From Anaerohalosphaeraceae bacterium (GTDB lineage Bacteria > Planctomycetota > Phycisphaerae > Sedimentisphaerales > Anaerohalosphaeraceae): a stretch of DNA of 64,000 nt. The position numbers were made by a program, and so were the translations under genes. The DNA lies in contig JBNRMN010000020.1 in NCBI GenBank assembly GCA_050309605.1, positions 32,001 through 96,000 on the forward strand. Reading direction: 5' to 3'. The first letter of the stretch is position 1, and each line of letters begins with the position of its first letter. This document shows positions 31,841 through 57,780 of the stretch, one piece after another. A model generated the notes under the pieces. It searched no databases. It was not told the DNA's origin and saw only the letters and a list, made by a program, of their open reading frames with translations.

Positions 31841-31866
31841 CTTACATCTCCACGTCGTTGTCTCGG

Positions 31867-33840: not shown

Positions 33841-34571
33841 CAGTTTGCCTTCCTTTCCTCAAGGATCAATATACAGGCGCTGACCCACGCCGAAATCACT
33901 ATGATAAAATACGCCATATCCTTAAACTCGACCACGCCGCGTGAAATAGACTCAAAATGCGTCTGCAAACTCAGACTTTCAACAACATTGACCATCGCCG
34001 GCGAGATCGTCAACGCCAGATAATCCAGTGTCGTCGGATTGCCCGCAAAGACAAAAATCGCACAGGCCACTACGGATAAAATAAAGCTGATGACCTGATT
34101 TTTGGTCAACGCCGAAAAAAACATCCCGATGGCCAAAAAACCGCCGGCCAGCAGCAGCGCTCCGATATAGCCGGTGACAATCTGACCAACGTCCGGCTGT
34201 CCCAGATAGACCACCGTCATCGGCAGCGGAAACGTCAGCAGCAGCGCAATGGCCAGAAAGCACCACGCCGCAAAGAACTTGCCCAGCACCGCCTGACAGA
34301 CGGTAATCGGCAGCGTCAGCAGCAGTTCAATCGAGCCGGTCTTGCGCTCCTCGGCCCACAGCCGCATCGCCGTGGAGGGCACCATAAACACAAACAGCAG
34401 CGGCAGTGCGTTGAAAAACAATCGCAAATCCGCCTGCCGCATCTCAAAAAATCCGTCGCGAAACGGAAGATAACCGGAAAAGAACAAAAAGATCACGAGG
34501 AATACATACGCCACCGGCGTGGTAAAGTACCCTTTCAGTTCACGTTTGAATACTGCCCAAAAGCCGCTCAT
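33840..34571 (-). CDS. GldF-like ABC-2 permease
   Basis: FKREL.GYF.TPVAYVF, MRLWAEERKTGSIELLLTLP and LTKNQVISF. Confidence 0.88.
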   Translation of the reverse strand: MSGFWAVFKRELKGYFTTPVAYVFLVIFLFFSGYLPFRDGFFEMRQADLRLFFNALPLLFVFMVPSTAMRLWAEERKTGSIELLLTLPITVCQAVLGKFFAAWCFLAIALLLTFPLPMTVVYLGQPDVGQIVTGYIGALLLAGGFLAIGMFFSALTKNQVISFILSVVACAIFVFAGNPTTLDYLALTISPAMVNVVESLSLQTHFESISRGVVEFKDMAYFIIVISAWVSACILILEERKAN

Positions 34572-34592
34572 TCGTTGGACTCCTTATCCTGC

Positions 34593-35327
34593 TTACGCGG
34601 ATTTTTTGGTTGTTGTGATTTTACGAAAGACCTCGGTCAGGCTGCATTGGTATTTTTCGGTTAGTTCTTTCGGGGTTGAATCGGCCAGGATACGGCCGCG
34701 GGCAACGATAATCGCCCGATTGCAGACCTGCTCGACCTCTTCGAGAATATGCGTCGAAATGATGATGCACTTGTCTTTTGCCATGGCGCTGATCAATCGG
34801 CGGACTTCGTGCTTTTGGTTGGGATCCAGACCGTCGGTCGGCTCATCCAGAATCAGCACCGGCGGATCGTGAATCAGCGCCTGGGCCAGACCGACGCGCC
34901 GACGGTACCCCTTCGACAGCGTGTCAATCGTTTGATGATACACCGATTCGATGGCACAAAGCGACACGACCCGATCCAGCGCACTGCGCCGGTCGGAGCG
35001 GACAATGCGTCGCGCATCGCAGACAAAATGGAGAAAACCCGCCACGGTCATTTCATTGTAAGCCGGGGCGTTCTCGGCCAGATAACCCAACGACTGCCGG
35101 ACGCCGATGGGGTCCGATAAAATATCGTGGCCGCAAATGCTTGCCGTTCCATCGTCCGGCCTGAGAAAACAGGCCAGCATCTTCATCGCCGTGCTTTTGC
35201 CCGCGCCATTGGGACCTAAAAAACCCACCACCTCGCCTTTTGCGGCGCTGAAAGAAATCCCGTCCACGGCAATGATCGGGCCGAAACTGCGTCGTAACTG
35301 CTGCACCTCAATCATGGTCGTCTCCAA
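34593..35327 (-). CDS. GldA-like ABC ATP-binding protein
   Basis: GPNGAGKST, LSKGYRRRVGLAQA, LDEPTDGLDPNQ and STHILEEV. Confidence 0.92.
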   Translation of the reverse strand: METTMIEVQQLRRSFGPIIAVDGISFSAAKGEVVGFLGPNGAGKSTAMKMLACFLRPDDGTASICGHDILSDPIGVRQSLGYLAENAPAYNEMTVAGFLHFVCDARRIVRSDRRSALDRVVSLCAIESVYHQTIDTLSKGYRRRVGLAQALIHDPPVLILDEPTDGLDPNQKHEVRRLISAMAKDKCIIISTHILEEVEQVCNRAIIVARGRILADSTPKELTEKYQCSLTEVFRKITTTKKSA

Positions 35328-35558
35328 AATGATTTAATTGTATGCGACACGGGCTTGACGTCTCCTCGACAGGCCAGGACGGCCCATGCCACAAAAGCAA
35401 ATTGTTATGCCGTTGAATTATGGCGCTAAGCCAATAAAAACGCTGAAAAGTGTACGTTTTTACGGCCTGAACGCTGCATTTGTTCATCTGTTTTAATGAC
35501 TTTTTCCCCGGTGTCAAGCCCCCCGGCACAAAAAAACGTCGAAATCCCCCCCGTCTTC

Positions 35559-35593
35559 AAAAAAGGCCGCCGTCCTGTGCAGGACGACGGCCT
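35559..35593 (-). terminator. Intrinsic terminator of the giant protease gene
   Basis: Minus strand AGGCCGTCGTCCTG-CA-CAGGACGGCGGCC followed by TTTTTT. Confidence 0.75.
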
Positions 35594-35625
35594 CGAACAA
35601 TCACACCGTCTGATACACCAGCCCA

Positions 35626-38600
35626 TTAGGGCAGTGTGTTCGTAACCCGCTTCCTGGGTGAGGGCGTACCGAGATTCTGTGCCGGCGAGCGGTCGCGGTA
35701 CTGCACCGTCCACCAGTAGAACAGATTGCTGGTGGTCACCGGCTGCCAGTATTGATGCGGCAGACCCGCCTGCGGCGTCCCGTCCGGGAACGGCGGCAGA
35801 TTCGCTACATTGTCCACATTGCGCCAGCCGCTGTCATAGACCACCGTACCGCTGGTTTCCGACTGATAGGCCCGGAACCGATACTCCACGCCGCTGTCAT
35901 CCTCGGCCTCGACCGCCACCATCACCTGGTAGAAGTTGCCGGTGACGCTTTGCTGGAACGGCGAGAGTTCCGTAAATGCAGCCGGATCCGGCGTCGGTGG
36001 AGTCACGTCCACTTCAGCCAAAACAACCGCCGCAGGCTCTGACCAATCGCCGGCCGTGATTTCGGCGCCCGTATCCAGGTTCACCAGCACCATTCGAACC
36101 TGATACGTATAGATAAGCCCCAGCGTCGTCGGACTCAGGTTTTGCCGTGTCTGCATCCGGTTCAGCGATTCAAATCCGGAGACTGTCGGCGTCGGCGTCG
36201 TGCTGATCGTCTCAGCGAACTGATAGCGTATCGCAAACCCGGACGGCAGTGAAGCAACGCCTGGGAACGAACTGTACGCCCTGGCAGTCATCGAAATCGC
36301 CAACGGCCCGGAAACCAACGGCAGCACCTCGAACTCGGCCTGCGGGATTTCCGTGTTGGACCCCGGCGTGACGATGCCGCGATCCATCGCCGGATTGACA
36401 ACAGAAAATGCGGTTTCATTTCCGCTGCCGTCGCGGGCGCGCGTCCTGAACGCATAGGTAAAGCCCGGAGTCAAGCCGGCTACCTGGTAGAACGGATCGG
36501 ACTGCCACCCGCTGCTGAACTGCGGGAAATCCACACACTCAAATTCAAACTCAAGGTACTCATCCGGCCACCAGTTGTCATGGGTCTCGGCAATCATCAT
36601 ATTGACCGTATCAAATGTTCCCGGTACGGCATTCGGCTCGATGACCCACAGCGACGGATTCGGCCGCGGCGCTTCTTTATCTTCTTCCAGCCAACAGGTC
36701 GTGAAACTAAGCAAATCCTCGATATCAACTCGACGATCAAAGTTCAGATCACCACCGCTGCACCAGTCGTTGCCTTCGCCGCAGGGGTCGTACTGCTCAT
36801 GGTACAACCAGGCTGAAGCAAACTCTGCAAAATCGGCCAGATCAATTCGCCCGCTTAAGACCAGATCGGCAAAGCTGCACGGAGCTTTGGATATAATGCG
36901 GTAATGATAGCCCATATCCACCTCGCCGCGATCACGCGCGCCAAAGATATTGGTCGTAAACTCGTTGAGTCCCCAGTACGCGGCGGTTTCATAACCGGCG
37001 TCAATAGCGGGACTTCCAATATCCAGATAGTATCGACGATAGACGTCCTGCGGCTCAATATCCAGCGGCTCAGTAAACAGCGGATTATGAATTGCAGGAT
37101 CGGCGCCGAGCATACCATCGCCAACGGTATAGATGCTGTCGCCGGCAACGGATATCGCCGCGGCACTGCCGAAGGCCTGGACATTCGACCAGGAAATAGT
37201 CAGCGTCGAGGGACGCGGATCCTGTTCGAAGCCGGCCCCCACCCGAATCTGATCGCCGCGGCCCTGCTCAGCCTTATTGCCCCAGAAGATACTGTTGATC
37301 ACATCCACAGCGGCGCCGTGTCCGGTATAAAGACCGCCGCCGCGAAGCGTAAAGCCCAGCGCGCCATGGTCTTTGTTGTCGGCAAAAGTACAATTACCGA
37401 AAGAGGCAACACTTTCCCAGTTGACCGACGCCCCGGCGCCGTCGCGTCCGGCCAGATTTTCTGCAAACAGGCAGTTAAACAGGTTGGCCGGTTCATCGAG
37501 GATGCCGCCAATATACACGCCGCCGCCCGAGACAACCGCCAAATTTCGGAAGAACGCCGAATGGCTGACGTCCAGCACGCCGCCGGCCGCAAACAAGCCG
37601 CCGCCCTGACCGAGCATCGAATCGGATGCAATCGGCGTCGGCGGAACGTCCTGATCATCATCATCGTCATCGTCGTCGTCATCCGGAGGGGTAATCTCAA
37701 TCGTCGGCGTCTTGGCCTTGTTGTTATGCAACAGCGTGTGGGTCAGTGACGCTGAGCCATAATCGAAATACAACCCGCCGCCGAGATAGGCTTCGTTATC
37801 AAAGGCGTTGCAGTCGGCAATCTCAATCAGTGAATCGCGGCCATAGACCGCACCGCCGACCGCAGCCCGGTTGCCTTCGAGAATCGTATTCTTGAAGACG
37901 ACTTCACAGTCGAACTCATAGGCTACCGCACCGCCGAAACTGACTTCCAAAGCCAGCGGAAGGTCCACAACACTCGTATCGGCCAGATTGTCCACGAAGA
38001 TACAGTCATCAAAGATCAGCTTTGACTCATAGGCTGCATAGACCGCACCGCCGGCATTGGGCAGATTCAGCTGCCGGTCCGGAGTGGGTAAATCGCCGTT
38101 TCCGGATCGACCGCCTATGCCGGACAAACCGCCCTGCGTCTGGTTGCCTTCAAATGTGCATCCGACAAAGGTCGCCTCGGACAGATAACCGACATAGACC
38201 GCACCGCCGAACGCGCTGTATTTCCAATAATCTTCATAGCCGTCAATCTTCGGATCCGTCGTGCCGGCCTGTTGGAACTGGGTCGAGGCGAAGAACTCCT
38301 GCCAACTGTTCCACTGATCCCAGCCAAACCATTTGGACCAAACAGACCAGTCATAACTGCCAAAGAACGCTCCGTAAAAGGCGTATTTATCGCCCAGTTC
38401 CCAGCCGTCCCACCACCACCAGTAGTTTTCCCGATCATTTTCGATAGAGTCGGGGAACAGGAAAGCGCCGCCGCGTCCGCCCCTATAAGAGGTGTTGGCA
38501 ACGACAATACCGTCACCCCCATTTCCGGCGACGCCGCCAATGGCCTGGTTACCGGTGAAGGTGCAGTTTTCAAAGACGGGCTTACTGCTGAAAGCGACAT

Positions 38601-41600
38601 AGACAGCACCGCCGTAGGCGCGACCCGGCCAGCCGCCGTCGCCGCCTTCCGGGTGGGCGTTACAACCGCCGGCCCCGTTTTGTCCGTCGCCGCCGGTAAT
38701 CACGTTGTCTTCGAATTGGCAATTGACAAAATAGGGAGAAGACTCAATAACGACAACCGCTGAGCCTGAGACGTTACCGCCGTTTGCCCCATCCATCGCA
38801 TCGGGACACCCCAGCTGTCTATCGCCGGACCAGCCCGATATGAGGTTTTCACTGAAGATGACATTCCGCAAAACGGGATTTCCATTATAGATTGTCACGG
38901 CTCCAAATCCGCCCCCAAACCCGGCTTGACCGATATTTGAACCGTGTCGGTTTGTAATGGTAATCCCTTCAATAACGGTTTTTTCGGTAACATTGAACAG
39001 ATTAAATGCGTATTGACTGAAGACGGTGTTGCGCACCGTGTCTTCATCATCCGGTTTGATGCCCGAAATGCGCAGGTCTTTTCCATCCAGATTGATTTCA
39101 CGCAATGCTCCGATAAACGCTCCTTCACCCGGCGTGCTGACCGGCGCATTATAGACCCCCGGATTAACAATAATTGTATCACCGTCCTGAGCCAGATCAA
39201 TCGCGTCCTGCAGGCTCGGCAAACCGCTCGCAAGACCGACAAAATAAGTCTGGCGCCGGCGGGCATGCACGGTTATGTCTTTGTCGCGGGTCATAATGAC
39301 CTTGTTGGCCATCGCAGCGGACTGATCGTTTACCGTTCCGCCTGACCAGCCGGTAATAACATACTCGGAATAGGGCATGGCCGTCATCTCAACAATCTGG
39401 CCATAATAGTATGTCCCCGGCGAATCCCCTTCCGGCGACAGCGCAACCGTTCCGCGGATGTTGCCCGAATCATCCAAGACAGCCACCGACAGCGAAAATT
39501 GGCGATCCATATCCGCCGGATTATAGTGATACCCCAGATCAACATTTCCTGTATCAAAAATCACCGGAAAAGCGGGGTTGGTTGTGTATTGATTCAATTC
39601 AGCCAAAACCGCCGATATATTGCCGGCATTGACCGCCGGACTGGTCGGATCCAGATAGTACGCTCCCAGCGGGCCTTCGACCAACATCGGATTGGCGCTG
39701 ACAGCGCCGCTGACACCCGCAACGCTGTTAAGCTGAGCTGCGCCGGTGTAGATGATTTCGGTTTGAGCGTCATACAGGTCGCCGCCGGTGTTGCCGTAGA
39801 ACAGGCTCGCTGTTATCGTTGCGTCGCCGGTATGACCGCCGGACGACTGGGCCTGCTCATAAATCCCGATCGGGCTGTTGCCGGCGATGATGGAATTCTC
39901 GGTCTGTGCCTTTGAAGACCAGTCGATGAACAGACCGCCGCCGAGTTTCTCGGCGGTATTGTCGGCAATCGTACAGTTGCTGAACCATGGATTGGCGTAA
40001 GTCATCACCTTCACGCCGCCGCCATTGCCTTCGGTAGTATTTTCAGCAATCAGGCAATTGTGCAGACTGTGCGTAATGAAATCATCCACGCCGCCGTTGA
40101 TGCACAACCCGCCGCCGGACGCACTGGCGCCTTTGGCGGCGTTATTCAGGATTCGCGTATCGGCCATCCAGGTCTTGGTATCGACCAGGTACAGACCGCC
40201 GCCGACGCCTTCATCCAACGGGGTCAGATGATCAGAACCCTCGCCGACCGGAATTGAGAACACAATGCCGCTGCCCAAATCAACGACCATTTCAAACGTA
40301 GGCCGCAGGCCGGTCGCTTCATTGGCCACAAAGAGACCGGAATCCAACTCCAGCTCACTTTCCACCACAAGCATACCGCCGCCGCTGGGCGCCTTGTTGC
40401 CGACAAACTGCGTGTCCTGCATTGTCAAGATGTTATTCTTGGCGTAAATGGCGCCGCCCAGCTCATCCGAACGGTTATACGTAAACTCCGTATCGTACAG
40501 ATTCACCAGCAGCGTATCGGTGTTCGGGTCGGGAATATGATGATACGCAAACAGCGCTCCGCCTCGCAGAATCGCATCGTTGGCGGCAAACGAACTGTTC
40601 CCGATGGTTATATCACTCTTGGTCTGAATCGCGCCGCCGGAGCCTTCGCTCAGATTGCCGATAAATTCACACTCGGTGATAACCGGCGCTTGGGCCGCAT
40701 CAGCCTCCACCGTAATGGCGCCGGCCGGTGGATCGTCTGGCTCGGTCAGACCGGGGATGTAATACTGCTCCAAATTCACGATGCTTTCTATGCCCAATTC
40801 GGGATCATAGGTTGCATTCTTCTCGAAGCGGCTTCGAGCGATCGTCAGAGCGGAACCCGTATCAGCATACACGGCGCCGCCCAGATTGCCCTCAAATTTG
40901 CAATTGTCAATCGCCAGCGTCACGTTCGGATCGGCATAGATCGCACCGCCCCGGGTAAAGTCATACGCTTCGCCTTCAATCGTATCATAGGTCAACACGA
41001 GATTGCTTGCGATTGACATATAAGCGCTGTTGTTCTCAAAAACGGTATTCTTGAGATCCGCCTCTTTGGGAACATCGGGCTGTTCAGGTCTTTTGTAGCC
41101 CTGGCCGTAGAACACCGCCCCGCCGGCCACGGTCCCTTCGCTGGTCAAAAATCCCGCTGCGCCGTTACGCGCCTCGATCGGCCAGTTCTCTTCATGCCAC
41201 GGATCGGGATATTCATTGCCTCCGCGTGCCAAGCCGCCGCTGGAGACATAACCCAGCCGTGCAAAGTTGTTTTTGAACTCATTGTCGGTAACAAGCGGGT
41301 TACAGCCCTGTTCAATATAGATGGCGCCGCCGCGTCCGTCGCCGCGGCCGTTGCCGGCGTCGCCGCCCCAACTGTAACGTCCATTGCCCACAGCAAAACC
41401 GCCGTGGCCGGGGATACCGCCCCAACCGCCGGTGGCCCGGTTATTCTCGAAGACGCAATGCTGAATAACTGGATTGCTGCCCTCAATGACCGCGATGGCG
41501 CCGCCGTAGCCGTTACCGGCGCCGTCGCCGCCGTGACCGCCCGACTGACCGTCAATATCGCCCTCAAGGCCCTGCGTGTTCTGAGGGTAGCCGTCATTGC

Positions 41601-44600
41601 CGTCGCCGCCGATACCGCCGGCGACTGTACAGTTTTCAAACACGACATGCCGGATAATCGGCGAACTGCCGTTGGCAACCAGAATCGCACCGCCATAACC
41701 GTTGCCCACGGCATCCAGCCCCGACAGCGCACGCACAGGAGGCGGCGGCTCAATCGACGGATCCGGCGGCCAAATGCCGGTATCCAGCACCCCGCTCAGA
41801 CCGATCGCCCCGGCCCAGAAGGCATTGCGAATCGTAATGCCTTCAATCACGGTGTTTTCGTCTTCGCCGTTATTAAAGATAAACGCGCGCTTGCGATTGT
41901 ATCGATTGCCCTGAACATCGATGACCGTATTGGCCACAACATCGGGGTCCAGCGGATTGGTCGAGGTCAGTTTCAATTGCTTGCCGCCGAAGTTAATCCC
42001 TTCGGGATTGGTAATGGTATAGGGCTGTCCCGTCCGCGGCGCCAGCACAATCGTATCACCTGACCTCGCCGCCTGGACGGCATCCTCAATGCCCGTATAT
42101 GATTCGGGCACAAACAGCCGTTTGGCAATCGCCAACTCAAACTCGACCTGCACATTCCGCGGTCCGGACATCGTTACTCGATTGAGCAGCTCAAACGACC
42201 TGTCATCGTCGGTTCCCACCCATTTGCGAACGCGGTACTTCTCATCATCCGGCACCGCGATCAGCCGGACATGCACACCTTGTTTGATCTCGATATGACT
42301 CGGTTCGGTACCGTCTGTCTCAATGCTCTGAGGAACGCCGTCCCGACTGTATTCGGCAACCAATTTCCCAAAGGGATAATAATCAGCCACAATAACCGCT
42401 ATATCCAGTCGGAACGATGCCACCGGCACCGCAGCGTTATAATGATACCCCAAATCCACGGCGTCCGTATCCGGCTCGTGATCGGTTCGCGTGGTCACCG
42501 GGAAGCCAAGCAGCGTTTCAAGCTCAGTCGCACTGCCGAGACCGCTGTTGACAGACAGGCTGTCAGGCTCAAACTGACCGGCCGCGGTCTGGGACAGATA
42601 AAACGTCCGGGTGGTCGGATCGTCCGGATTGGGCTGTCTGGCCTGGATAAACATCGGATCGGCGTCCAGCAAACCGCCGGCATCAAAGACCCACGGATTC
42701 CCATAGGGTTCGCCCAGATAGACCCCTTCGACGCCCTCTTCGATGTTGGTATAAGACAGTTCAAGCGTACTGGGCAGATTGTAGGCCTTCAGCGGATCGC
42801 CGACAGCCGCCTGCGGCCCGAATACGGCCAGGTTGTCCCACAAAATGCTGTTTTCAACCAGCACATAACTGGAAAACAGCCCCTCCCATTCGTCCCATTC
42901 CTCGTCCCATTGGCCCGCGAAATGGTCATAACCGCAACTGATCGCACCACCGTGCCCCACATAATCAATGACGGTATTTTCCGTCAACGTGCAGAAGCGA
43001 AACGCCGGATCGCCGCCGTTCATCACCGCCACCGCACCACCGCTGAGGCCGGCCTCGTTTTCCACAAACAAGCAATTGGTAAAGGCCTGGACCGCATCGT
43101 CATCGCCCAAATCATAGGCGACATAATACCACGGTCCGAGAATAAAGGCCGCACCGCCGGCATGGTCGGCACTGTTGGCAACAAAAGTCGCATTCGTTAC
43201 ATTGGCCGAGGAGTTGCCGGCGTAAAAGGCACCGCCCAAAGCGCCGGGGTTGGGACTGTTAATAAGCTGTTCGGCGCTGTTTTGTACGAAATCACAATTT
43301 GTTATCTGGGCATTGGAATACCACCAATATGCCCCGCCGCCGAACTCGGCCCGGTTGGCGGTAAATTGACAATCTTCAATCGTCATATCCGCCTCCACCG
43401 CGGCCAGACCGCCGCCGTATTCAGCCATATTGCTGGTAAAGGATGTACGCAGAATATCCACCTTGGGATAGTTACCCCTGAACGTGTCTTCGACAGCTAT
43501 ATTAATAGCACCGCCGACACTACTCAGTCGAGTTGATGTGACAGCCGGTCCGGCCCGGTTGCCGGTAAAGACACTGTCAACAACCCTCAGCGGCCCCGGA
43601 ACAGCAAACATTTGATAAGTTGGTAAATAACTGATAGCGCCGCCGTCGCCCTCACCAATGGCTCTGTTGTACTGGAATGTACAGCGCAGGACATCAAACG
43701 AAGTGGTCGCATAAGCATGGATAGCACCACCGCTACCCCCACCCATACCATCGCCACGGCCTTCGCCGCCGGCCTGATTTCCTTCAAACAGCGTATCTTC
43801 AAACGTCATCGACGAACCGCTGAAGAACACACAGACAGCACCGCCGTGGTCGCCTTCAGACTGGTTATCCAGAAATGCACTATCCACCACAGTCAAGTTG
43901 ACATTATCGTAAAGGAATATCGCCCCGCCCATCGAACGGTTCAATCGCGTCGGGACAAGACCTCCGCCGGAAGGGCCATTGGCGCCGGACTGGCCGTTTT
44001 CGCCGGCCGCACCACCGGCACCACCAGCGCCGCCGGGGGCGCCGGGGCCGCCGGAGCCGCCATTGCCGCCGTTGCCGCCCACATTCGCCCCGGCGCCGCC
44101 GTTGCCGCCGGCACCGCCAGCGCCGACCGCGTTGCCGTCGCCGGCATTGCCGCCCATACCGCCGTTGCCGCCGTCGCCGCCATTGCCGCCGTTTTCACCG
44201 CCGTCGCCGCCGTTACCGCCAGCGCCGCCGTCATAGCTGAAGGACTCGACCAAATCGGAGGACAGATTATTTTCAAATCTGCACCCGGTAATGGAAATCC
44301 GGCAATTAAACTCCAGCACAATGGCGCCGCCGATAGCGCCGTCCATGGTAATTCCTTTTCCAAAACCATTCAGACCGCCGTCGCCGCCGTCACCGCCGCG
44401 ACCGCCGTCGCCGCCCTGACCATCAGGGCCATCTTCACCATCCGGAGCATCTCCGCCGCCGCTGCCCCCGGCGCCGCCGGCACCGCTGGCGCCGCCGTTA
44501 CCGCCGTTACCGCCGTTACCAGCCACATTCCCCAAGCCGGTGATGGCTGTGTTGCCGACAAAGACGCTGTCTTCCACTTCGGGCAGACACGAATTTTCAA

Positions 44601-47600
44601 AGAAAATCGCACCCGCCGCGGCAGCACCGCCCCAGCCGCCGTCGCCGCCGCGTCCGCCGTCGCCGCCGCGTCCGCCGTTACCACCGGCGCCACCGGCACC
44701 GCCGGCACCGCCGGCACTCAGACTGGTATCCGGAAGATCAAGCCATTCTTCCAAACCTTCCGGCAATTCGATATCATCTGACGGATCGCCGCCGTCGCCG
44801 CCGTCGCCGCCGTCTGAACCGTCCCCGCCAGCGCCGCCATTGCCGCCGTTACCGCCGGCGCCGGCGTCACCGCCCATAGCAAAACAGTTTTCAACAGTCA
44901 CTTTTCGGATCAGCGGGGAGCTGCCGGCCTCGAAATACATCGCACCGCCCAGCCCGATGCCGCCGTCGCCGCCGCGTTCGCCGTCCTGACCCCGCTGGCC
45001 GTCCCGGCCATCCTGGCCGGCGCCGCCCGGCTGGCCGCTGTCGCCGCCGGTACCTTTTACAGCATAATACGTCTCGGATACGACCAGACCGCCATAACGA
45101 ACTTCGACGGTCACTTCCTGCGTCCCGTTGTTCAGCACACGACACAACACCGGACTATCCGGATCGTCCACTATCGTCGCATTAATCACACTCTCTTGGC
45201 GCGTCAAAATAACCGTTCGACTCAAAACCCGGCCATGGTAGAACGAACCGGTTACAATGATCTCACCCTCGGGCGTCCATTCCTCTTCGGGAAGCCACGG
45301 ATCCGACGACTGGAGATAGATCAGCCCCTGGTCTGATTCGACCGAACCAACAAACGGCATCCCGTCGTATTCATTCACGACGCGCAGCGCCGTCCCCCAG
45401 GTTTGCCCCCCGTCGTCACTGACCCGCATATACAAACAGCCTTCAGCATACGTTTCAAGCCAATTGGTCTGACCATCCACACTGAACTGAACCGTTCCGG
45501 CCTCCAGTTCCGCCGGCTCGCTCCAGCCCGCCGCATCGGCAAAGGAACCGTCGCCGGCTTTCAGGGCGGACATATACCACAGCGGTTCCGCACCGTCCGG
45601 CGGCGCGTCAAACCAATCATTCGGATCATCGCCGCTGCCGATCACATCAGGCCAATCGGGCGTGGGCGGCATGCTTTCAGCCCGCTTGAAAACATATTCC
45701 GTGTAAGTCGGCAAATCGGTTATGTCCGCCACGAAAATCTCGTCCAGCACATCGCCTTCAGGACCTTCGCGCAGCGTAATTTCAAGCATCGAATCAATAT
45801 CCTCTGCCGTCAGGTCAGCCGTATAACCCAACTCGGTTCCGTCAGGCAGATACATCATGATCGGACCGCCCAGAAGAACCATATCAATTCCCGCCACGGC
45901 CAGACGCACCTCAAGCGTCAGCACATCATCCGTATTTCGAATCGCCGTGCCGTTAACCGGCAAGATGTAATACACAATATCCGGCGATCCTTCAGCGCCG
46001 TCAGCTCCCTCAGCGCCGTCCTCTTGGGCGCTTGCGCCGTTTGCACCATTATTGCCGTCGCGCCCGGCGCGTCCGTCCTGCCCCTGAGCAAAACTATCCC
46101 GAATAACGCAATTGGCAATGGTCGGAGAAGCGCCGTTCTGCGCCAGGATGGCACCGCCGAAAGCATCCAGACCATTCGGATCGGCACTCTGCGGCGGCGC
46201 GGATTTTGGACCATTGACCGCGTATGCATTTTGGATGGTAAAGCCGCTGACAACCGTATCCCGACCTTCCGCCGGATACAGATCGAGGTCAAAGCCAAAA
46301 TGGAATGCCCGTCTCGGGCTATGATCCCCGCTTTCCTGACTGCCCTGGGGATCAATGATGGTTGCAGCCACAATGGCCGGATTGTCCGGATTTTCACTGC
46401 GCAGCGTAATCGCCTTGCCGTAAAAGACCAGATTCCGGTTGCCGCCGCCGGTATAAACACCCGGCTTGACCACAATCGTGTCGCCGTCGTTAGCCGCATC
46501 AATCGCCGCTTGAATGGTTGTAAACGGATACGGCACTTCCAGCGTTCGCGGGGGAGGGCCGACAATAACGGCCTTGGCCGGCGCGACAACGGTTTCATAA
46601 TCGGCGTCCGTCCGTCCGTCGTTTAAGTCGCGCTCATATTTCTGGCGCACCTTCGCCTCAAATTCATACCGAAAACCGATCTGCAGCGGCTGATTAACAG
46701 TCACTTCATGGATTGTATTATCCGTCCATCCGCTCGGCGTGGTCGTGCCCAGTTCAAGGATTCGTTCCGGGAAATTGGGGTCGTTGTAGTAGGGATTCGT
46801 GGTGGCGACACACTCGAATCGATATTCCACATCATTTTCATCGTAGGCCGGCTCCACTTCCATCATAATCCTCAACGTGGTGCCCATCCGTCTCGGCACA
46901 GCCTTCCATCGCGAGGGACTCGGCGCCGGAATCAGCGTATCCACCTCCGCCGCGGTTTCCGCCTCCACCGCCTCCGACCAGTGGCCGGTATTCTTGTTTT
47001 GCGATTGATCCTGGTAACGAACACGGAAGGTATAGGTCTGCCCCTCGGCGGCATTCCAGACCTGATACAACGGACTGGCCTGCCAGCCGCTGCTGAGCGA
47101 ATCATCTTCCAGACACTGAAACTCGTACAGCACACCGGAGATGTCCGTCGCCTTTGCGGCCCGCATCACGATGTGGTTCAAACCGGTGGCCGTCGGCTCA
47201 ATATCCCATTGAGCCGGATTCGGCGTCGGCGGAACACGGTCGTCCGCTCGCGCGGCCTGCACTGACTTGTACAGATTCAAACGACCGCTGGTAACACTCA
47301 AATCTTTCAGTGCGTCAACGGTATCGACCGTGGACATCAGGATATGTTTCACTTCCTGATACGTCAGGTGCGGATTCTCCGACAACACCAGCGCCGCGGC
47401 GCCGGCCACATGCGGCGAAGCCATTGAGGTCCCTGAAATGGAACCATAACCTTCGTTGGGAAAGGTACTCAATATATTTTGTCCCGGCGCTGCCAGATCC
47501 ACCGTGACCTTGCCCCAGTTTGAAAACAGAGAACGCTGATCATTGTGGTCGGTGGCCATCACCGAAATGACGTTGGGCAAGCGAAAACTTTGAGGCGAAC

Positions 47601-48561
47601 CGAATATGATATCATTATTGCTTGATTCATTACCGGCCGCCATCACAAACAGCACACCGGCATCTTTGGCCGCCTCAAGCGTATCGCGCAGCGCGTTGAC
47701 CTGTTCGGGCATCAGATAATTCTGAAACCCCCAGGAGGCATTGATAATATGCGCCCCGTTTAAGACCGCATATTGAATTCCTTCGATCGCGCCGGACAGA
47801 GCACCCTGAATGGTGCCGCCGCCTTCCCAGAAGACTTTACACGCCATCAACTGAACCTGCCAGCACACACCGGCAACGCCGATATTGTTGTTGCCGACCG
47901 CGCCGATGGTACCGGCAACATGGGTGCCGTGATAGTGGTCGTCCATCGGATCGGATACATCCCAATAGAAATCATACCCGTAAATATCGTCAACATAACC
48001 GTTTCCGTCGTCATCCACGCCGGCGATACCGTATAACTCCGCCTTGTTGACCCACATATTGGCCGCCAGGTCGGGATGCGTATAATCAATGCCGGTATCC
48101 GTAACTGCCACAATGATGTCGCGGCTGCCGGTATTCAAGTCCCACGCCGGAACCGCGCTGATGTCAGCGCCGGGCGTACCGCCCGTCTGTCCGGTATTCT
48201 GCATCCCCCACAACTCGTCAAACAGAGGGTCATTGGGAACATAGGCGGGATAGAGCATGTAGTCCGGATCCGCATAGCGTACCCCGATGGCAGCCTGAAA
48301 TCGGCTGCGCGCCGCGGCAACGTTGTCGCCGGCCGGCAGCTTGACCAATCCAAGACCGGGAACCATCGGATACATCTTTTCGATGGTTCCGCCGCCGGCG
48401 GCCTGAACAACCATCTGACGTGCCATATTCGCTTCCGGCGTAGTGCCCGTTTCACTGAATCGCACCAGCAGATAACCCTCGCGATACGCAGACTCCTGAG
48501 CGAACGAAAAACCGCAAATGAGGATAAATAATACCAGCCCCGCCAAAAACGTGTGTCTCAT
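35626..48561 (-). CDS. Giant (~4,311 aa) secreted subtilisin-like (S8) protease with FN3-like repeats, three beta-helix modules, Gly-rich tracts and a dockerin-like module
   Basis: Signal peptide after a GGAGGG RBS (ATG 48561). Intact triad motifs VTDTG, HGTHVAG and GTSMASP plus AAGN. Three modules starting TIQAAIDAA-like, rich in GGA(I/V) and FxxN, each ending (L/M)GYHY. Confidence 0.9.
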   Translation of the reverse strand: MRHTFLAGLVLFILICGFSFAQESAYREGYLLVRFSETGTTPEANMARQMVVQAAGGGTIEKMYPMVPGLGLVKLPAGDNVAAARSRFQAAIGVRYADPDYMLYPAYVPNDPLFDELWGMQNTGQTGGTPGADISAVPAWDLNTGSRDIIVAVTDTGIDYTHPDLAANMWVNKAELYGIAGVDDDGNGYVDDIYGYDFYWDVSDPMDDHYHGTHVAGTIGAVGNNNIGVAGVCWQVQLMACKVFWEGGGTIQGALSGAIEGIQYAVLNGAHIINASWGFQNYLMPEQVNALRDTLEAAKDAGVLFVMAAGNESSNNDIIFGSPQSFRLPNVISVMATDHNDQRSLFSNWGKVTVDLAAPGQNILSTFPNEGYGSISGTSMASPHVAGAAALVLSENPHLTYQEVKHILMSTVDTVDALKDLSVTSGRLNLYKSVQAARADDRVPPTPNPAQWDIEPTATGLNHIVMRAAKATDISGVLYEFQCLEDDSLSSGWQASPLYQVWNAAEGQTYTFRVRYQDQSQNKNTGHWSEAVEAETAAEVDTLIPAPSPSRWKAVPRRMGTTLRIMMEVEPAYDENDVEYRFECVATTNPYYNDPNFPERILELGTTTPSGWTDNTIHEVTVNQPLQIGFRYEFEAKVRQKYERDLNDGRTDADYETVVAPAKAVIVGPPPRTLEVPYPFTTIQAAIDAANDGDTIVVKPGVYTGGGNRNLVFYGKAITLRSENPDNPAIVAATIIDPQGSQESGDHSPRRAFHFGFDLDLYPAEGRDTVVSGFTIQNAYAVNGPKSAPPQSADPNGLDAFGGAILAQNGASPTIANCVIRDSFAQGQDGRAGRDGNNGANGASAQEDGAEGADGAEGSPDIVYYILPVNGTAIRNTDDVLTLEVRLAVAGIDMVLLGGPIMMYLPDGTELGYTADLTAEDIDSMLEITLREGPEGDVLDEIFVADITDLPTYTEYVFKRAESMPPTPDWPDVIGSGDDPNDWFDAPPDGAEPLWYMSALKAGDGSFADAAGWSEPAELEAGTVQFSVDGQTNWLETYAEGCLYMRVSDDGGQTWGTALRVVNEYDGMPFVGSVESDQGLIYLQSSDPWLPEEEWTPEGEIIVTGSFYHGRVLSRTVILTRQESVINATIVDDPDSPVLCRVLNNGTQEVTVEVRYGGLVVSETYYAVKGTGGDSGQPGGAGQDGRDGQRGQDGERGGDGGIGLGGAMYFEAGSSPLIRKVTVENCFAMGGDAGAGGNGGNGGAGGDGSDGGDGGDGGDPSDDIELPEGLEEWLDLPDTSLSAGGAGGAGGAGGNGGRGGDGGRGGDGGWGGAAAAGAIFFENSCLPEVEDSVFVGNTAITGLGNVAGNGGNGGNGGASGAGGAGGSGGGDAPDGEDGPDGQGGDGGRGGDGGDGGLNGFGKGITMDGAIGGAIVLEFNCRISITGCRFENNLSSDLVESFSYDGGAGGNGGDGGENGGNGGDGGNGGMGGNAGDGNAVGAGGAGGNGGAGANVGGNGGNGGSGGPGAPGGAGGAGGAAGENGQSGANGPSGGGLVPTRLNRSMGGAIFLYDNVNLTVVDSAFLDNQSEGDHGGAVCVFFSGSSMTFEDTLFEGNQAGGEGRGDGMGGGSGGAIHAYATTSFDVLRCTFQYNRAIGEGDGGAISYLPTYQMFAVPGPLRVVDSVFTGNRAGPAVTSTRLSSVGGAINIAVEDTFRGNYPKVDILRTSFTSNMAEYGGGLAAVEADMTIEDCQFTANRAEFGGGAYWWYSNAQITNCDFVQNSAEQLINSPNPGALGGAFYAGNSSANVTNATFVANSADHAGGAAFILGPWYYVAYDLGDDDAVQAFTNCLFVENEAGLSGGAVAVMNGGDPAFRFCTLTENTVIDYVGHGGAISCGYDHFAGQWDEEWDEWEGLFSSYVLVENSILWDNLAVFGPQAAVGDPLKAYNLPSTLELSYTNIEEGVEGVYLGEPYGNPWVFDAGGLLDADPMFIQARQPNPDDPTTRTFYLSQTAAGQFEPDSLSVNSGLGSATELETLLGFPVTTRTDHEPDTDAVDLGYHYNAAVPVASFRLDIAVIVADYYPFGKLVAEYSRDGVPQSIETDGTEPSHIEIKQGVHVRLIAVPDDEKYRVRKWVGTDDDRSFELLNRVTMSGPRNVQVEFELAIAKRLFVPESYTGIEDAVQAARSGDTIVLAPRTGQPYTITNPEGINFGGKQLKLTSTNPLDPDVVANTVIDVQGNRYNRKRAFIFNNGEDENTVIEGITIRNAFWAGAIGLSGVLDTGIWPPDPSIEPPPPVRALSGLDAVGNGYGGAILVANGSSPIIRHVVFENCTVAGGIGGDGNDGYPQNTQGLEGDIDGQSGGHGGDGAGNGYGGAIAVIEGSNPVIQHCVFENNRATGGWGGIPGHGGFAVGNGRYSWGGDAGNGRGDGRGGAIYIEQGCNPLVTDNEFKNNFARLGYVSSGGLARGGNEYPDPWHEENWPIEARNGAAGFLTSEGTVAGGAVFYGQGYKRPEQPDVPKEADLKNTVFENNSAYMSIASNLVLTYDTIEGEAYDFTRGGAIYADPNVTLAIDNCKFEGNLGGAVYADTGSALTIARSRFEKNATYDPELGIESIVNLEQYYIPGLTEPDDPPAGAITVEADAAQAPVITECEFIGNLSEGSGGAIQTKSDITIGNSSFAANDAILRGGALFAYHHIPDPNTDTLLVNLYDTEFTYNRSDELGGAIYAKNNILTMQDTQFVGNKAPSGGGMLVVESELELDSGLFVANEATGLRPTFEMVVDLGSGIVFSIPVGEGSDHLTPLDEGVGGGLYLVDTKTWMADTRILNNAAKGASASGGGLCINGGVDDFITHSLHNCLIAENTTEGNGGGVKVMTYANPWFSNCTIADNTAEKLGGGLFIDWSSKAQTENSIIAGNSPIGIYEQAQSSGGHTGDATITASLFYGNTGGDLYDAQTEIIYTGAAQLNSVAGVSGAVSANPMLVEGPLGAYYLDPTSPAVNAGNISAVLAELNQYTTNPAFPVIFDTGNVDLGYHYNPADMDRQFSLSVAVLDDSGNIRGTVALSPEGDSPGTYYYGQIVEMTAMPYSEYVITGWSGGTVNDQSAAMANKVIMTRDKDITVHARRRQTYFVGLASGLPSLQDAIDLAQDGDTIIVNPGVYNAPVSTPGEGAFIGALREINLDGKDLRISGIKPDDEDTVRNTVFSQYAFNLFNVTEKTVIEGITITNRHGSNIGQAGFGGGFGAVTIYNGNPVLRNVIFSENLISGWSGDRQLGCPDAMDGANGGNVSGSAVVVIESSPYFVNCQFEDNVITGGDGQNGAGGCNAHPEGGDGGWPGRAYGGAVYVAFSSKPVFENCTFTGNQAIGGVAGNGGDGIVVANTSYRGGRGGAFLFPDSIENDRENYWWWWDGWELGDKYAFYGAFFGSYDWSVWSKWFGWDQWNSWQEFFASTQFQQAGTTDPKIDGYEDYWKYSAFGGAVYVGYLSEATFVGCTFEGNQTQGGLSGIGGRSGNGDLPTPDRQLNLPNAGGAVYAAYESKLIFDDCIFVDNLADTSVVDLPLALEVSFGGAVAYEFDCEVVFKNTILEGNRAAVGGAVYGRDSLIEIADCNAFDNEAYLGGGLYFDYGSASLTHTLLHNNKAKTPTIEITPPDDDDDDDDDDQDVPPTPIASDSMLGQGGGLFAAGGVLDVSHSAFFRNLAVVSGGGVYIGGILDEPANLFNCLFAENLAGRDGAGASVNWESVASFGNCTFADNKDHGALGFTLRGGGLYTGHGAAVDVINSIFWGNKAEQGRGDQIRVGAGFEQDPRPSTLTISWSNVQAFGSAAAISVAGDSIYTVGDGMLGADPAIHNPLFTEPLDIEPQDVYRRYYLDIGSPAIDAGYETAAYWGLNEFTTNIFGARDRGEVDMGYHYRIISKAPCSFADLVLSGRIDLADFAEFASAWLYHEQYDPCGEGNDWCSGGDLNFDRRVDIEDLLSFTTCWLEEDKEAPRPNPSLWVIEPNAVPGTFDTVNMMIAETHDNWWPDEYLEFEFECVDFPQFSSGWQSDPFYQVAGLTPGFTYAFRTRARDGSGNETAFSVVNPAMDRGIVTPGSNTEIPQAEFEVLPLVSGPLAISMTARAYSSFPGVASLPSGFAIRYQFAETISTTPTPTVSGFESLNRMQTRQNLSPTTLGLIYTYQVRMVLVNLDTGAEITAGDWSEPAAVVLAEVDVTPPTPDPAAFTELSPFQQSVTGNFYQVMVAVEAEDDSGVEYRFRAYQSETSGTVVYDSGWRNVDNVANLPPFPDGTPQAGLPHQYWQPVTTSNLFYWWTVQYRDRSPAQNLGTPSPRKRVTNTLP

Positions 48562-48725
48562 GACACCCTCCGAAAAAAAAGTTCCGTTTTTCATCATTCT
48601 TTCATCCTGATAAGTTAAAGGTTATTCGCCGTTAAAAACAGTCGCCTGCACGCACGGCGCAACAGGCTTGCACGTTCGATAATCCTTTACCTTATCGGAT
48701 AGTGGCATTCGTGAGTTTAACTACT

Positions 48726-48754
48726 TGTATAGCAGAAATACGCTGCGATGTCAA
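48726..48754 (-). promoter_or_regulatory. Sigma70 promoter of the giant protease gene
   Basis: TTGACA-N17-TATACA with an extended -10 (TGC), giving a leader of about 160 nt. Confidence 0.65.
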
Positions 48755-49023
48755 CCCCGCAAAGATGCGTTACACGCCCACTCTGTTCAACCTGCATTTT
48801 ATGGGACCTGGAAAATCCGTGGCCGCATTTCCATAAAACGTCCGATAGACTCGTCCCTGACAGACTTATTATAGTAGATTTTTCCCCGAAACATAAAAAA
48901 AACAGGATTTTTTCAAAAAAATTTGAAATTTCTGCACCTCTGCGTGTAAAATGCGGCGTTTGTCGGACTGCCGGAATAATCTGTCCTGTTCCCTGTAAAC
49001 AACACATTTTGAATGCCCAACGT

Positions 49024-50304
49024 ATGAAATTACAGACACAAAAATCGATCTTAAAAGGCGAGGTTTCGATCCCCGGCTCAAAATCGCATACGATTCGCGC
49101 CGTGGCGATCGCGTCGCTGGCCGAGGGGCAAAGCCGTCTTTGCCGGCCCCTGATATCCAGCGACACGCTCAGCGCGACAGACTGCTGGCGCGCCCTTGGG
49201 GCCGAGATCGACACATCCCACCCGGATCAGTGGGTGATTACCGGAACCGGCGGACGGATTGAAAACCAAAATCAGATTATTGATGTCGGAAATTCAGGGA
49301 CGACCTTGCGGCTTGGCCTCGGTTCAGCGGCCCTGGGCCATCCGGACGGGGCGGTTACCTTCACCGGCGACCATCAAATCCAGACCCGGCTACTGAATGA
49401 TTTGATCGGTTCGCTCAACGATCTCGGCGCACATATTCGATCGCTCAAGAATAACGGCTGCGCCCCGGTCATGGTCTCGGGTCGGCTCAAAGGGGGGCGG
49501 ACCTCGATCGCGTGTTTTACCAGTCAATATCTGTCCAGTTTACTGCTGGCCTGTCCGCTGGCCGACGACGATACGGAGATTGAAGTAACGCTGCTCAATG
49601 AGCCGGATTATGTACAAATGACGCTGGACTGGCTCGACAAACAACAGATTGATTATAAAAACAACAACTTAAAGACCGTTTATATCCGGGGCGGTCAGCG
49701 TTTTAAGGCCTTTGATGAGCGGATTTGTGCTGATTTTTCCAGTGCGACGTTTTTTTTGTGCGCCGGCGCGCTGTGTGGACAGGATGTCCTCATTCAAGGG
49801 CTGGATTTCGGCGACAGTCAGCCGGACAAAGCCGTTGCGGATTACCTGCGGGCAATGGGCGCCGATATTCGACAGGAAGAGTCAGGGATTCGCGTCCGAA
49901 AATCTGCCCTGAAAGGGATAGAAATTGATATGAACCGCACCCCTGACGCCCTGCCGGCCATGGCGGTAACCGCGGCCTTTGCCGAAGGGACCACGCGGCT
50001 GGTCAATGTGCCGCAGGCGCGCAAGAAGGAAACCGACCGGATCGCCTGTATGGCCGCCGAACTGACGAAAATCGGGGCTGAGGTCGAGCAATTGCCTGAT
50101 GGACTGGTCATTCACGGCGGTGCAACGCTGACGGGCGGGCCGGTCTGCGGCCATGCCGATCATCGCATTGTAATGGCGCTGGCGGTGGCGGGCTTGGCGC
50201 TGGATGAGCCGCTGGAAATTGACACCGCCGAGGCGATGAATGTTACTTTTCCCGGATTTGTGGATTTGATGAAAACGCTGAATGCCAAACTGAACCTTCA
50301 ATAA
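49024..50304 (+). CDS. aroA: 3-phosphoshikimate 1-carboxyvinyltransferase (EPSP synthase)
   Basis: IPGSKS, DVGNSGTTLR, SQYLSSLL, KETDRI and DHRIVMA. Start set at ATG 49024. Confidence 0.93.
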   Translation: MKLQTQKSILKGEVSIPGSKSHTIRAVAIASLAEGQSRLCRPLISSDTLSATDCWRALGAEIDTSHPDQWVITGTGGRIENQNQIIDVGNSGTTLRLGLGSAALGHPDGAVTFTGDHQIQTRLLNDLIGSLNDLGAHIRSLKNNGCAPVMVSGRLKGGRTSIACFTSQYLSSLLLACPLADDDTEIEVTLLNEPDYVQMTLDWLDKQQIDYKNNNLKTVYIRGGQRFKAFDERICADFSSATFFLCAGALCGQDVLIQGLDFGDSQPDKAVADYLRAMGADIRQEESGIRVRKSALKGIEIDMNRTPDALPAMAVTAAFAEGTTRLVNVPQARKKETDRIACMAAELTKIGAEVEQLPDGLVIHGGATLTGGPVCGHADHRIVMALAVAGLALDEPLEIDTAEAMNVTFPGFVDLMKTLNAKLNLQ

Positions 50305-52717: not shown

Positions 52718-52819
52718 AATCATCGATCCGCCGCGACGATGTCCGTTTGGAAAACAACTTGACCCGACCGGCGGTCAGTCTCCTCTTTTGCAGGCTTTCA
52801 ACCCGCCATGTCGTTCGGA

Positions 52820-53515: not shown

Positions 53516-53538
53516 CAATCATCCCTTTCATCAAACAG

Positions 53539-53557
53539 GGGCGGGCACTGCCCGCCC
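53539..53557. repeat. GC-rich palindrome (REP-like or mRNA stem)
   Basis: GGGCGGGCA-C-TGCCCGCCC between the oxidoreductase and DUF1080 genes. Confidence 0.5.
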
Positions 53558-53602
53558 TCACATACCATTGTTTCTCAATATCAATCCCTCGCGTCATCCG
53601 CT

Positions 53603-55048: not shown

Positions 55049-55097
55049 ACTAACCTCCGCTAAATCAATTATGGGTTTCAATTAGTGCCGTATTCAA

Positions 55098-55229
55098 TTA
55101 TCCGCGCAACCTGCAATGCAAACCGCGTGCGCTCGCCTGCATCGCCGACGGTCCCGCAGAAAGGCTGCCCCCGGTGACCATAAAATCACGACCCGACAGC
55201 GGTGACAGATGGGTTTGATGGATATGCAT
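55098..55229 (-). other. Small 43-aa ORF with a strong RBS, resembling a degenerate Tat signal peptide
   Basis: AGGAGG-TCGT-ATG; MHIHQTHLSPLSGRDFMVTGGSLSAG... Confidence 0.35.
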
Positions 55230-56370: not shown

Positions 56371-56390
56371 AAACGAAAGGGTCAAACGCA

Positions 56391-57773: not shown

Positions 57774-57780
57774 ACCTCGG

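Follow-up and report, generated by a model that had tools for sequence, protein, structure and literature searches.

We analysed a stretch of 64,000 nucleotides (nt) from an Anaerohalosphaeraceae bacterium (Planctomycetota; Phycisphaerae; Sedimentisphaerales), namely positions 32,001 to 96,000 of the forward strand of contig JBNRMN010000020.1 (assembly GCA_050309605.1). This whole stretch is called the window below, and positions refer to it. A giant gene on its minus strand (35626..48597) appears to encode an exported multidomain protein with an intact-looking N-terminal serine protease and a long body of beta-helices and FN3 domains. Judged from comparison with orthologues, the propeptide-plus-catalytic head of this protein behaves as a replaceable cassette, which starts where the signal peptide ends and stops at the first FN3-like unit. 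What most deserves following up is this exchange of protease heads on a conserved stalk; the interpretation as a surface machine is offered as a hypothesis.

The giant gene is a single uninterrupted open reading frame (ORF) of 4323 codons plus stop, with zero internal stops. It is the longest open frame in the 3.4-Mb genome (97 contigs, 99.7% complete), the runner-up having 3151 codons, and makes up 0.4% of the genome. The predicted protein has a mass of 455 kDa, contains 14% Gly and is very acidic, as a sequence-only reading of this DNA had noted (isoelectric point 4.19; 557 acidic vs 221 basic residues). That reading also placed a poly-Asp tract near 37650-37685, where we found ten Asp codons at 37654-37683. 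Domains were assigned by scans with Pfam and NCBIfam models of the full protein and of 28 overlapping segments of 300 amino acids (aa). Two structure predictions, of aa 2040-3130 and of the C-terminal part, were added, together with fold and sequence searches against solved structures.

The catalytic domain matched PF00082 at aa 159-425 with 199.8 bits (cut-off 21.8). Its closest solved relative was deseasin MCP-01 (3vv3; 318.9 bits, E 4.2e-94, aa 120-446), and alignment to this structure revealed D167, H223, N323 and S391 in the subtilase order, including the oxyanion Asn. All four residues were retained in 14/14 S8-headed orthologues. A propeptide was recognized by PF22148 at aa 34-111 with 22.5 bits on a 300-aa segment (cut-off 21), the score on the whole protein being 17.6 bits. 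The signal peptide, prodomain and intact S8 protease proposed by the sequence-only reading were thus borne out by these two profiles, the catalytic residues and our own reading of the sequence, and the head looks like an active deseasin-type endopeptidase. MCP-01 from Pseudoalteromonas sp. SM9913 degrades collagen and particles and has C-terminal modules of its own. It resembles the giant protein as a secreted multidomain subtilase with additional C-terminal modules, and in the aligned catalytic domain with its Asp/His/Ser triad and the surrounding motifs. However, the 3VV3 chain comprises 334 residues, whereas the head in the window sits on about 3,870 more residues and can be replaced by proteases of other clans.

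Evidence for this replacement came from 16 syntenic orthologues, which were fetched and whose N-terminal parts were scanned for the type of head. Fourteen carried S8, one M6 (motif HETGH; genome G028) and one M4 (motif HELTH; genome G131, with the layout FTP-M4-M4_C). Three of the S8 orthologues, all from one genus, had a divergent S8 domain that lacks the fervidolysin-type propeptide. The genome with the M6-headed gene belongs to the genus of the window; the two proteins are 79% identical in their C-terminal 443 aa. The two loci have continuously homologous DNA from 50306 to 48504 (76%), which extends from aroA across the intergenic DNA into the giant gene as far as codon 32; no homology exists below 48504 until 47232 (aa 456). 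At the protein level, homology restarts at PPTPNP(A/P)QWDIEPTATGL, and the first FN3-like unit is the junction of all head variants. In a maximum-likelihood tree of the stalk (helix module 2), the M6 gene was sister to the S8 gene of the window (95/93) within an S8 clade (100/99), and the M4 gene clustered with two S8 genes (100/99). Because the M6 and M4 genes nest inside S8 clades, parsimony suggests two independent replacements of an S8 head, and S8 would be the common state that was replaced twice (by M6 and M4) among the sampled orthologues.

A head-independent search with aa 453-860 as query returned 217 proteins, 120 of them listed. According to precomputed Pfam lists, 90 of these 120 contained S8 and 30 did not; M4 proteins were among the 30. 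Confirmed non-S8 heads, carried by homologues more distant than the syntenic orthologues, were Inhibitor_I69 plus Peptidase_C10 (P0122) and Propeptide_C25 (P0166), and further confirmed non-S8 domains were C14 (P0146) and sialidase (P0126). The first FN3-like unit began at residue 520-547 in the M4, M6 and C10 proteins and at residue 381-500 in 64 proteins; in P0037, a headless homologue, it began at residue 41. Another giant homologue carries a head with 56% identity to the M6 head of G028, and three others have heads that share 58-78% identity with the M4 head of G131, so that heads seem to move among members of the giant-protein family. In P0035, a homologue of 4016 aa, residues 1-535 gave no Pfam match and aligned with the G028 M6 head at 26% identity (E 1e-28); this head is probably a divergent M6-like or inactivated one.

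The giant gene is real and whole, and is neither a misassembly nor a fusion artefact. A search with words spread along its full length yielded 199 homologous proteins of 2377-7566 aa. The best of them were 50-53% identical and came from assemblies assigned to Phycisphaerae, Anaerohalosphaeraceae and Sedimentisphaerales; the homologues were colinear with the window protein over aa 1-850 and about 1700-4323. Near-identical DNA was present in metagenome runs of seven studies other than the possible source study, every one of them holding 57% or more of the words sampled; the runs are labelled as soil, gut, biogas fermenter, sludge or metagenome. In run X3, two contigs of 27.6 kb and 6.8 kb with depths of 49 and 49.5 covered positions 35000-49000 completely, with 38 substitutions and one in-frame 3-nt deletion relative to the window. 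Moreover, a 94%-identical C-terminal fragment occurs in a public metagenome-assembled genome titled Phycisphaerales bacterium. An assembly artefact or a decaying pseudogene could be suspected where short-read contigs break in a Gly-rich repeat (44378-44404), but the two X3 contigs overlap exactly there, at equal depth and without a frameshift. Furthermore, the 16 orthologues (3772-4253 aa) are free of stops, one of them lying on a one-contig 4.9-Mb genome, and the active-site residues are conserved. We therefore regard this explanation as extremely improbable, and the misassembled fusion against which the sequence-only reading had cautioned is dismissed because an independent metagenome reproduces the gene and colinear orthologues exist in complete genomes. 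With respect to expression, eight contigs from RNA-library run X19 fell within the giant gene or next to it; they were 194-473 nt long and showed 0-2 differences. A second run, X20, was discarded as expression evidence, being probably DNA. Gaps in the coverage by these runs carry no weight as evidence, and runs with small word shares, such as X18, give no indication of habitat.

Behind the head, matches to Beta_helix (PF13229) and Chlam_PMP (PF02415) covered three stretches starting at aa ~687, 2160 and 3116. These starts correspond to positions 46539, 42120 and 39252 and agree well with the three beta-helices that had been predicted to begin near 46550, 42120 and 39250. PF02415 reached up to 36.1 bits in 300-aa segments (cut-off 20.6) and TIGR01376 21.3 bits (cut-off 15), in keeping with the Pmp-like GGA(I/V)/FxxN motifs named in the same prediction. 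The protein contains 26 GGA[IVLMF] sites, and 17 GG[AG]x and 13 FxxN motifs were counted in helix module 1. Every helix module starts with a shared N-cap (…IQxAIDxAxxGDTIxV…) and ends in a closing cap, D(L/M)GYHY; module 1 comprises the N-cap, Gly-rich loops, an insert and a C-cap finishing in DLGYHY. Each cap is followed by one small domain, which is a B-repeat after modules 1 and 2 and dockerin-like after module 3. The model of aa 2040-3130 (mean predicted local distance difference test score, pLDDT, 80.8; predicted template modelling score, pTM, 0.77) consists of a sandwich, a long right-handed helix and a second sandwich. Taking 4.8 Å as the height of a rung, ~25-30 rungs for each helix module (estimated from motif counts and the strand pattern of the module 2 model) and seven small domains, with general values for rung and small-domain dimensions, we would roughly expect the extended protein to be about 60 nm long. 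Open frames of 9915, 7114 and 7074 codons (G243:C135, about 68.9-87.8 kb; G152:C4; G279:C13) were observed in relatives within the family and the order. They contain the helix-cap/B-repeat module six to seven times, and the stalk therefore probably grows by module duplication.

The beta-helix modules could themselves be enzymes (lyases, epimerases or hydrolases), in which case the giant protein would be a multi-enzyme chain that breaks down glycoproteins or polysaccharides, and the protease only one activity of several. The top Foldseek matches of the module 2 model were PL6 alginate lyases, GH87, GH110, AlgG and tailspike depolymerases; sialidase or chondroitinase-type domains occur on some relatives, and the gene neighbourhood and, as far as the accessible parts of the literature tell, the family are rich in glycan-degrading genes. 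However, the template modelling (TM) scores of these matches were 0.09-0.22 at 8-11% identity, and Rhombotarget A, PfbA and pertactin were also matched, all with low TM-scores. Such values indicate that only the generic beta-helix fold is common to module 2 and the lyases or tailspikes, and they point to no specific enzyme family for module 2. In addition, the GGA[ILV]/FxxN repeats are of the Pmp adhesin type, and the Pfam and NCBIfam scans gave zero matches of carbohydrate-active enzyme family models on the helices. Catalytic helices are therefore quite unlikely in our view.

The FN3-like 'PTPNPAxW' units of the sequence-only reading were recovered at both ends of the stalk. The C-terminal ones were modelled as three FN3 domains (pLDDT ~90) with matches to contactin FN1-FN3 (Foldseek probability 1.00, E 7e-11), to a titin profile (E 3e-8) and, in the search against solved structures, to the FN3 domain of chitinase A1. 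The N-terminal pair is homologous to these C-terminal units; the match to Pfam fn3 stayed below the threshold (14.3 vs 25). Other parts of the stalk go beyond that reading, which had not described the two InlB-B-repeat-like domains, the ~330-aa insert, the Trp-rich insert, the exchangeable head or the syntenic core status of the gene. The lineage-specific insert at aa ~880-1210 occurred outside the window only in G052 (41% identity) in a full-length alignment of 17 sequences and received zero Pfam assignments. A Protein Atlas look-up of this insert showed low recognition, and the phage BppU and collagen clusters that it returned were set aside as weak leads. The insert also contains an in-frame 3-nt indel at 45629, these 3 nt being absent from the two mutually independent metagenome assemblies X3 and X4. 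The Gly-rich loops contain up to 42% Gly with an imperfect 9-nt period (3-residue GGX) and a local GC content of 63%. The poly-Asp loop is variable in length, and the tract is absent in 7/16 orthologues. For the Trp-rich insert in helix 3 (pattern WDGW…WxKWF…W…YWxY), the Protein Atlas look-up gave no usable match; a role in binding or anchoring is a guess. RTX/HemolysinCabind GGxGxD repeats had zero matches to Pfam models in the whole protein and the 28 segments. In addition, only one EF-hand loop of the dockerin-like module is canonical, so that the Ca-stabilised stalk suggested earlier is a conjecture.

This dockerin-like module contains four invariant Cys and one canonical DxNxDxxxDxxD loop. 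Its second loop, DLNFDRRVDIED, is the canonical one and its first loop, DLVLSGRIDLAD, is degenerate. The comparison with a dockerin of known structure (2y3n_B) gave a weak E value of 0.31. The module resembles pieces of ORFs of the same genome that pass PF00404, which lends it transitive support, and 34 Dockerin_1 matches exist in the genome at E ≤ 0.01. One of these 34 is a weak match (21.4 bits at 10564-10713) in a 343-aa ORF of the window (9802-10833, minus strand). The dockerin-like nature of this part, as named by the sequence-only reading, is thus tentative: the transitive similarity and the canonical loop speak for it, but a direct profile match does not. The scans with Pfam and NCBIfam models gave zero matches to an autotransporter barrel (E ≤ 0.1), PEP-CTERM or RTX, and strongly hydrophobic 19-mers occurred in the signal peptide only. 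These results confirm the absence of a barrel, PEP-CTERM and membrane anchor noted earlier. No lipobox was found in the giant protein. The genome contains seven secretin genes, and zero of them are linked to the giant gene.

Taking these results together, we favour, with moderate confidence, a real, Sec-exported modular protease whose exchangeable head cassette, carried by a conserved stalk, would act at a distance from the cell-surface or substrate partner to which the stalk holds. The gene itself, its domain order, the intact active site, the conservation and the exchange of heads are the parts that the sequence data establish. After export via Sec, the protein would cross the outer membrane by a route that we only infer, for which the seven secretin genes would be available, and the propeptide, acting as intramolecular chaperone and inhibitor, would be removed. 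The stalk would consist of the two FN3 spacers, three right-handed parallel beta-helix modules of the Pmp type and the three closing FN3 domains. Its dockerin-like/FN3 end or the helix surfaces may grip a partner on the cell surface or the substrate, so that the protease could reach insoluble material of protein or glycoprotein nature at a distance of some tens of nanometres, in anoxic habitats rich in organic matter. Recombination replaces the propeptide-plus-catalytic head, with the signal peptide and the first FN3 unit as boundaries. A more far-reaching proposal is a polymorphic exo-enzyme system with a universal stalk and exchanged warheads of at least five families (S8, M4, M6, C10 and C25-type) between two fixed junctions, tethered independently of cohesins via the dockerin-like module and/or the Trp-rich insert. 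This proposal is tentative, and we consider it rather unlikely.

Several observations weigh against the tethered protease. The dockerin-like module fails PF00404 (E ≤ 0.05 for segments, E ≤ 0.01 for the genome) and was modelled as two helices at pLDDT 30-50 only. Cohesin (PF00963) had 0 matches in the 99.7%-complete genome, although divergent cohesins could be missed. Neither the Pfam and NCBIfam scans nor the hydropathy scan revealed an anchor in the giant protein, and no C-terminal sorting signal, hydrophobic tail or conserved tail was present. The beta-helix fold is common to polysaccharide lyases and tailspikes, so that glycan binding or cleavage by the stalk is conceivable. The stalk tree has a midpoint root only, and expression rests on the eight short contigs from X19, a library that may contain DNA. 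Finally, the part of the source available to us (PMC11266412) describes the family's one cultivated species as a sugar fermenter, and it is thus not evident how a protease would serve nutrition.

Since the C-terminus shows neither a sorting signal nor a hydrophobic tail, the sequence would agree equally well with free release. The giant protein could then be a soluble exo-enzyme whose helices, FN3 domains and dockerin-like module bind polymers of plant, fungal or bacterial walls or the biofilm matrix instead of the producer cell, and the protease would be directed to particles rather than displayed by the cell. The missing anchor, lipobox, barrel and conserved tail and the zero cohesin matches would all fit such an enzyme. 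The same applies to the resemblance of the helices to glycan-binding tailspikes and lyases and to the chitinase A1 match, as FN3 domains are frequent in secreted enzymes that degrade glycans or chitin. On the other hand, a protein of 455 kDa would be costly to lose by diffusion, and the at least 34 ORFs with dockerin-type modules suggest a shared docking principle; neither argument is decisive. We judge free release to be possible, if somewhat unlikely, and retain the modular protease acting at a distance as the preferred interpretation, in which attachment to the cell surface is inferred only.

To survey the distribution of the giant gene, aa 1950-2300 were used as query against a class-wide sample of 300 other genomes. 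The module signature occurred in 22/22 genomes of the same family, in 11/11 and 2/2 genomes of two sister families of the order, and in 6/265 genomes elsewhere in the class (two more families of the order with 1/4 apiece, 4/19 in two other families and 0/238 in the remaining 17). The few matches elsewhere in the class were short ORFs that have only the helix N-cap in common. Genomes of the same family contained one frame each of about 3800-4300 codons, one member having 9915 codons, and the frames in the sister families had 2046-7074 codons. These data identify the giant gene as a single-copy, vertically inherited core gene of its family, with relatives mainly confined to the same order. Consistently, it divergently adjoined aroA in 5/5 family genomes tested. 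A cassette of an ABC ATPase, an ABC-2 permease, a GldG-like protein and DUF4340 was located downstream of it in 4/5 family genomes. In the sister families, however, the GldG-like gene was on contigs other than that of the giant gene in 4/5 genomes (the four having it). For this reason, the adjacency probably reflects conserved gene order only, and a functional link between the giant gene and the cassette was rejected.

Exchange of heads among close relatives would also be expected if the protein were a weapon or grappling device that digests the S-layers or walls of prey or competitors, with head exchange as the outcome of an arms race as in polymorphic toxins. In the latter (CDI/Rhs), a long conserved delivery part is combined with a catalytic end that is exchanged at a sharp junction, and the variable C-terminal toxin is accompanied by an adjacent immunity gene. 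The giant protein differs in that its variable part is N-terminal and consists of ordinary secreted proteases with propeptides, and no immunity-like or inhibitor gene lies beside the giant gene, whose neighbours, aroA and the ABC transporter, are of a housekeeping kind. The lineage-specific insert and the variable acidic loops would suit a weapon, and N-terminal S8 domains occur on giant proteins of Omnitrophota that are, in the portion of the report considered here, discussed as predatory (10.1101/2023.11.21.568195). Nevertheless, 14/16 orthologues keep the S8 head at 38-52% mean identity, which is slow for an arms race, and the sampled literature, as far as accessible, suggests no predatory lifestyle for the family. 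Attack on S-layers or other cells, which the sequence-only reading had included among the possible functions, thus gained no support, and we consider a weapon improbable.

Of the other known systems, chlamydial Pmp proteins and type Va autotransporter passengers share with the giant protein the GGA[ILV]/FxxN repeats on a right-handed beta-helix, and pertactin and PfbA were among the fold matches. Unlike them, the giant protein lacks a C-terminal beta-barrel, has three serial helices separated by sandwiches and carries an enzyme at its N-terminus. As there is no barrel translocator, its export route must differ from theirs. The Omnitrophota giant proteins have, according to the sections of West-Roberts et al. 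(10.1101/2023.11.21.568195) consulted, 30,000 aa or more with transmembrane segments and antiparallel helices; self-cleavage and predation were considered in their case, and action on extracellular polymers was proposed. Like the protein in the window, they are very long exported proteins from the PVC-related bacteria, some with N-terminal S8, dockerin-type modules and beta-helical stretches. By the description in these sections, on which the comparison is based, they are far longer, transmembrane and built of other helices, and head exchange at an orthologous locus is not described there. The 'planctosome' hypothesis (Andrei et al. 2019, PMC6461901), in the excerpt consulted, proposes that freshwater Phycisphaerae display outer-membrane peptidases via dockerin-type modules and so degrade polypeptides. 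It envisages a multi-protein system of an LTD-anchored cohesin scaffold and dockerin-bearing M12B/M14 peptidases (PMC6461901), whereas the giant protein is a single chain with other peptidase families in a genome with zero cohesin matches. A search of the full-text literature, with subscription journals and supplements outside its scope, retrieved no description of this giant-protein family or of head exchange. General surveys of giant genes in Planctomycetota also belong to the most closely related publications. We conclude that the giant protein is an uncharacterised variant among multidomain subtilases and giant beta-helix surface proteins, and that its family is large, restricted to the order and labelled only generically in public annotation.

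The start of the giant gene was assigned by comparison with the orthologues. The second in-frame ATG (M13) at 48561 is where the sequence-only reading ended the gene, and it is probably the true start, although the ORF extends to 48597. The nine bases directly before this ATG, CGGAGGGTG, are invariant in the window and 16/16 orthologues and would fit a ribosome-binding site, which makes a start at 48561 probable. The GAG GGT codons before the ATG likewise showed zero synonymous changes across the window and the 16 orthologues. An in-frame ATG at the position 12 codons upstream of M13 is present in 16/16 orthologues, the window having two adjacent ones, and the N-terminus may for this reason be longer. 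The codons at 48562..48597 would accordingly belong to a leader or else extend the signal peptide at its N-terminus. In the genus of the window, a hairpin (GTGTC ATGA GACAC) lies over the start codon in the region 48553-48597; other genera have a partly palindromic sequence at this site. The hairpin and invariant bases could serve to control translation, or the region could extend the signal peptide. Scans of both flanks of the giant gene for promoters and of the downstream flank for terminators gave zero such sites, and the upstream flank contained two weak terminator-like hairpins, one spanning the start codon.

The ORF of aroA (EPSP synthase; 48748-50304, plus strand, 518 aa) has a Pfam domain that begins at residue 99. 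Among five relatives, the match began at residue 89-93 in three; the remaining two, which contain internal stops, had it from residues 51 and 61. The true start of aroA is thus probably near 49020, which would leave a divergent intergenic region of ~400 nt in common with the giant gene. On the other side of the giant gene, the minus strand at 30716-35327 encodes the ABC ATPase, the ABC-2 permease, the GldG-like protein (ABC_transp_aux/DUF7088) and the DUF4340 protein, with 54-63% identity across the order. A DUF4914 gene is located at 50318-52222. It is followed at 52808-64000 by sugar-use genes for a DUF1080 3-keto-disaccharide hydrolase, two GFO/IDH/MocA oxidoreductases and a xylose-isomerase-like TIM barrel, together with a 1105-aa alpha-L-rhamnosidase and a RhaT-type rhamnose transporter.

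Table 1 Features of the giant gene and its predicted product, with positions in the window.
Feature	Position	Strand	Basis
Whole ORF	35626..48597	-	4323 codons plus stop; probable start ATG 48561
12 in-frame codons upstream of M13	48562..48597	-	ends in invariant Shine-Dalgarno-like CGGAGGGTG
Putative signal peptide, aa 13-34 (MRH...SFAQ)	48496..48561	-	sequence reading; top hydropathy window; homologous to G028 signal peptide
Putative propeptide, fervidolysin N-pro-like, aa 35-119	48241..48495	-	PF22148
S8 subtilase catalytic domain, aa 120-452	47242..48240	-	PF00082; 3vv3 alignment; catalytic residues
Exchangeable head cassette	47233..48503	-	DNA homology to same-genus M6 orthologue (G028) absent here
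Two FN3-like 'PPTPNPxxW' units, aa 453-686	46540..47241	-	homology to C-terminal units; weak fn3 match
Beta-helix module 1, aa 687-2054	42436..46539	-	Beta_helix and Chlam_PMP matches; NosD N-cap match 695-735
Lineage-specific insert, aa ~880-1210	44968..45960	-	alignment gap fraction 0.87-0.94 across 16 orthologues
Gly-rich GGX-triplet loops between helix rungs, aa ~1210-1560	43918..44970	-	composition; repeat scans
InlB-B-repeat-like beta-sandwich 1, aa 2061-2155	42133..42417	-	structure model; homologous to Flg_new_2 region of relatives
Beta-helix module 2, aa 2160-3026	39520..42120	-	profile matches; structure model
InlB-B-repeat-like beta-sandwich 2, aa 3033-3114	39256..39501	-	PF18998 at 3052-3110, 33.9 bits; model
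Beta-helix module 3, aa 3116-3899	36901..39252	-	segment profile matches
Trp-rich aromatic insert in helix 3, aa ~3390-3460	38218..38430	-	kept in 16/16 orthologues
Poly-Asp tract (10 D) in Pro-flanked acidic loop	37654..37683	-	composition; alignment
Divergent dockerin-like module, aa 3907-3975	36673..36879	-	similarity to ORFs passing PF00404
Three tandem FN3 domains, aa 3976-4323	35629..36672	-	model; Foldseek; titin profile match

Giant genes of Planctomycetota are frequently mentioned but seldom dissected. As the gene studied here is present in every sampled genome of the family and fills 0.4% of its small genome, it probably plays a central part in polymer handling by these anaerobes, which are widespread in digesters, litter, compost and sediments. 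The exact and repeated replacement of the head on a conserved stalk is a clear natural example of cassette engineering of extracellular enzymes, and its defined junctions could be used for the display of chimeric enzymes. The aroA-linked locus may serve as a marker for studies of recombination in uncultured Phycisphaerae. Finally, the many dockerin-type modules in a genome with zero cohesin matches sharpen the question of which partners dockerins have outside cellulosomes.

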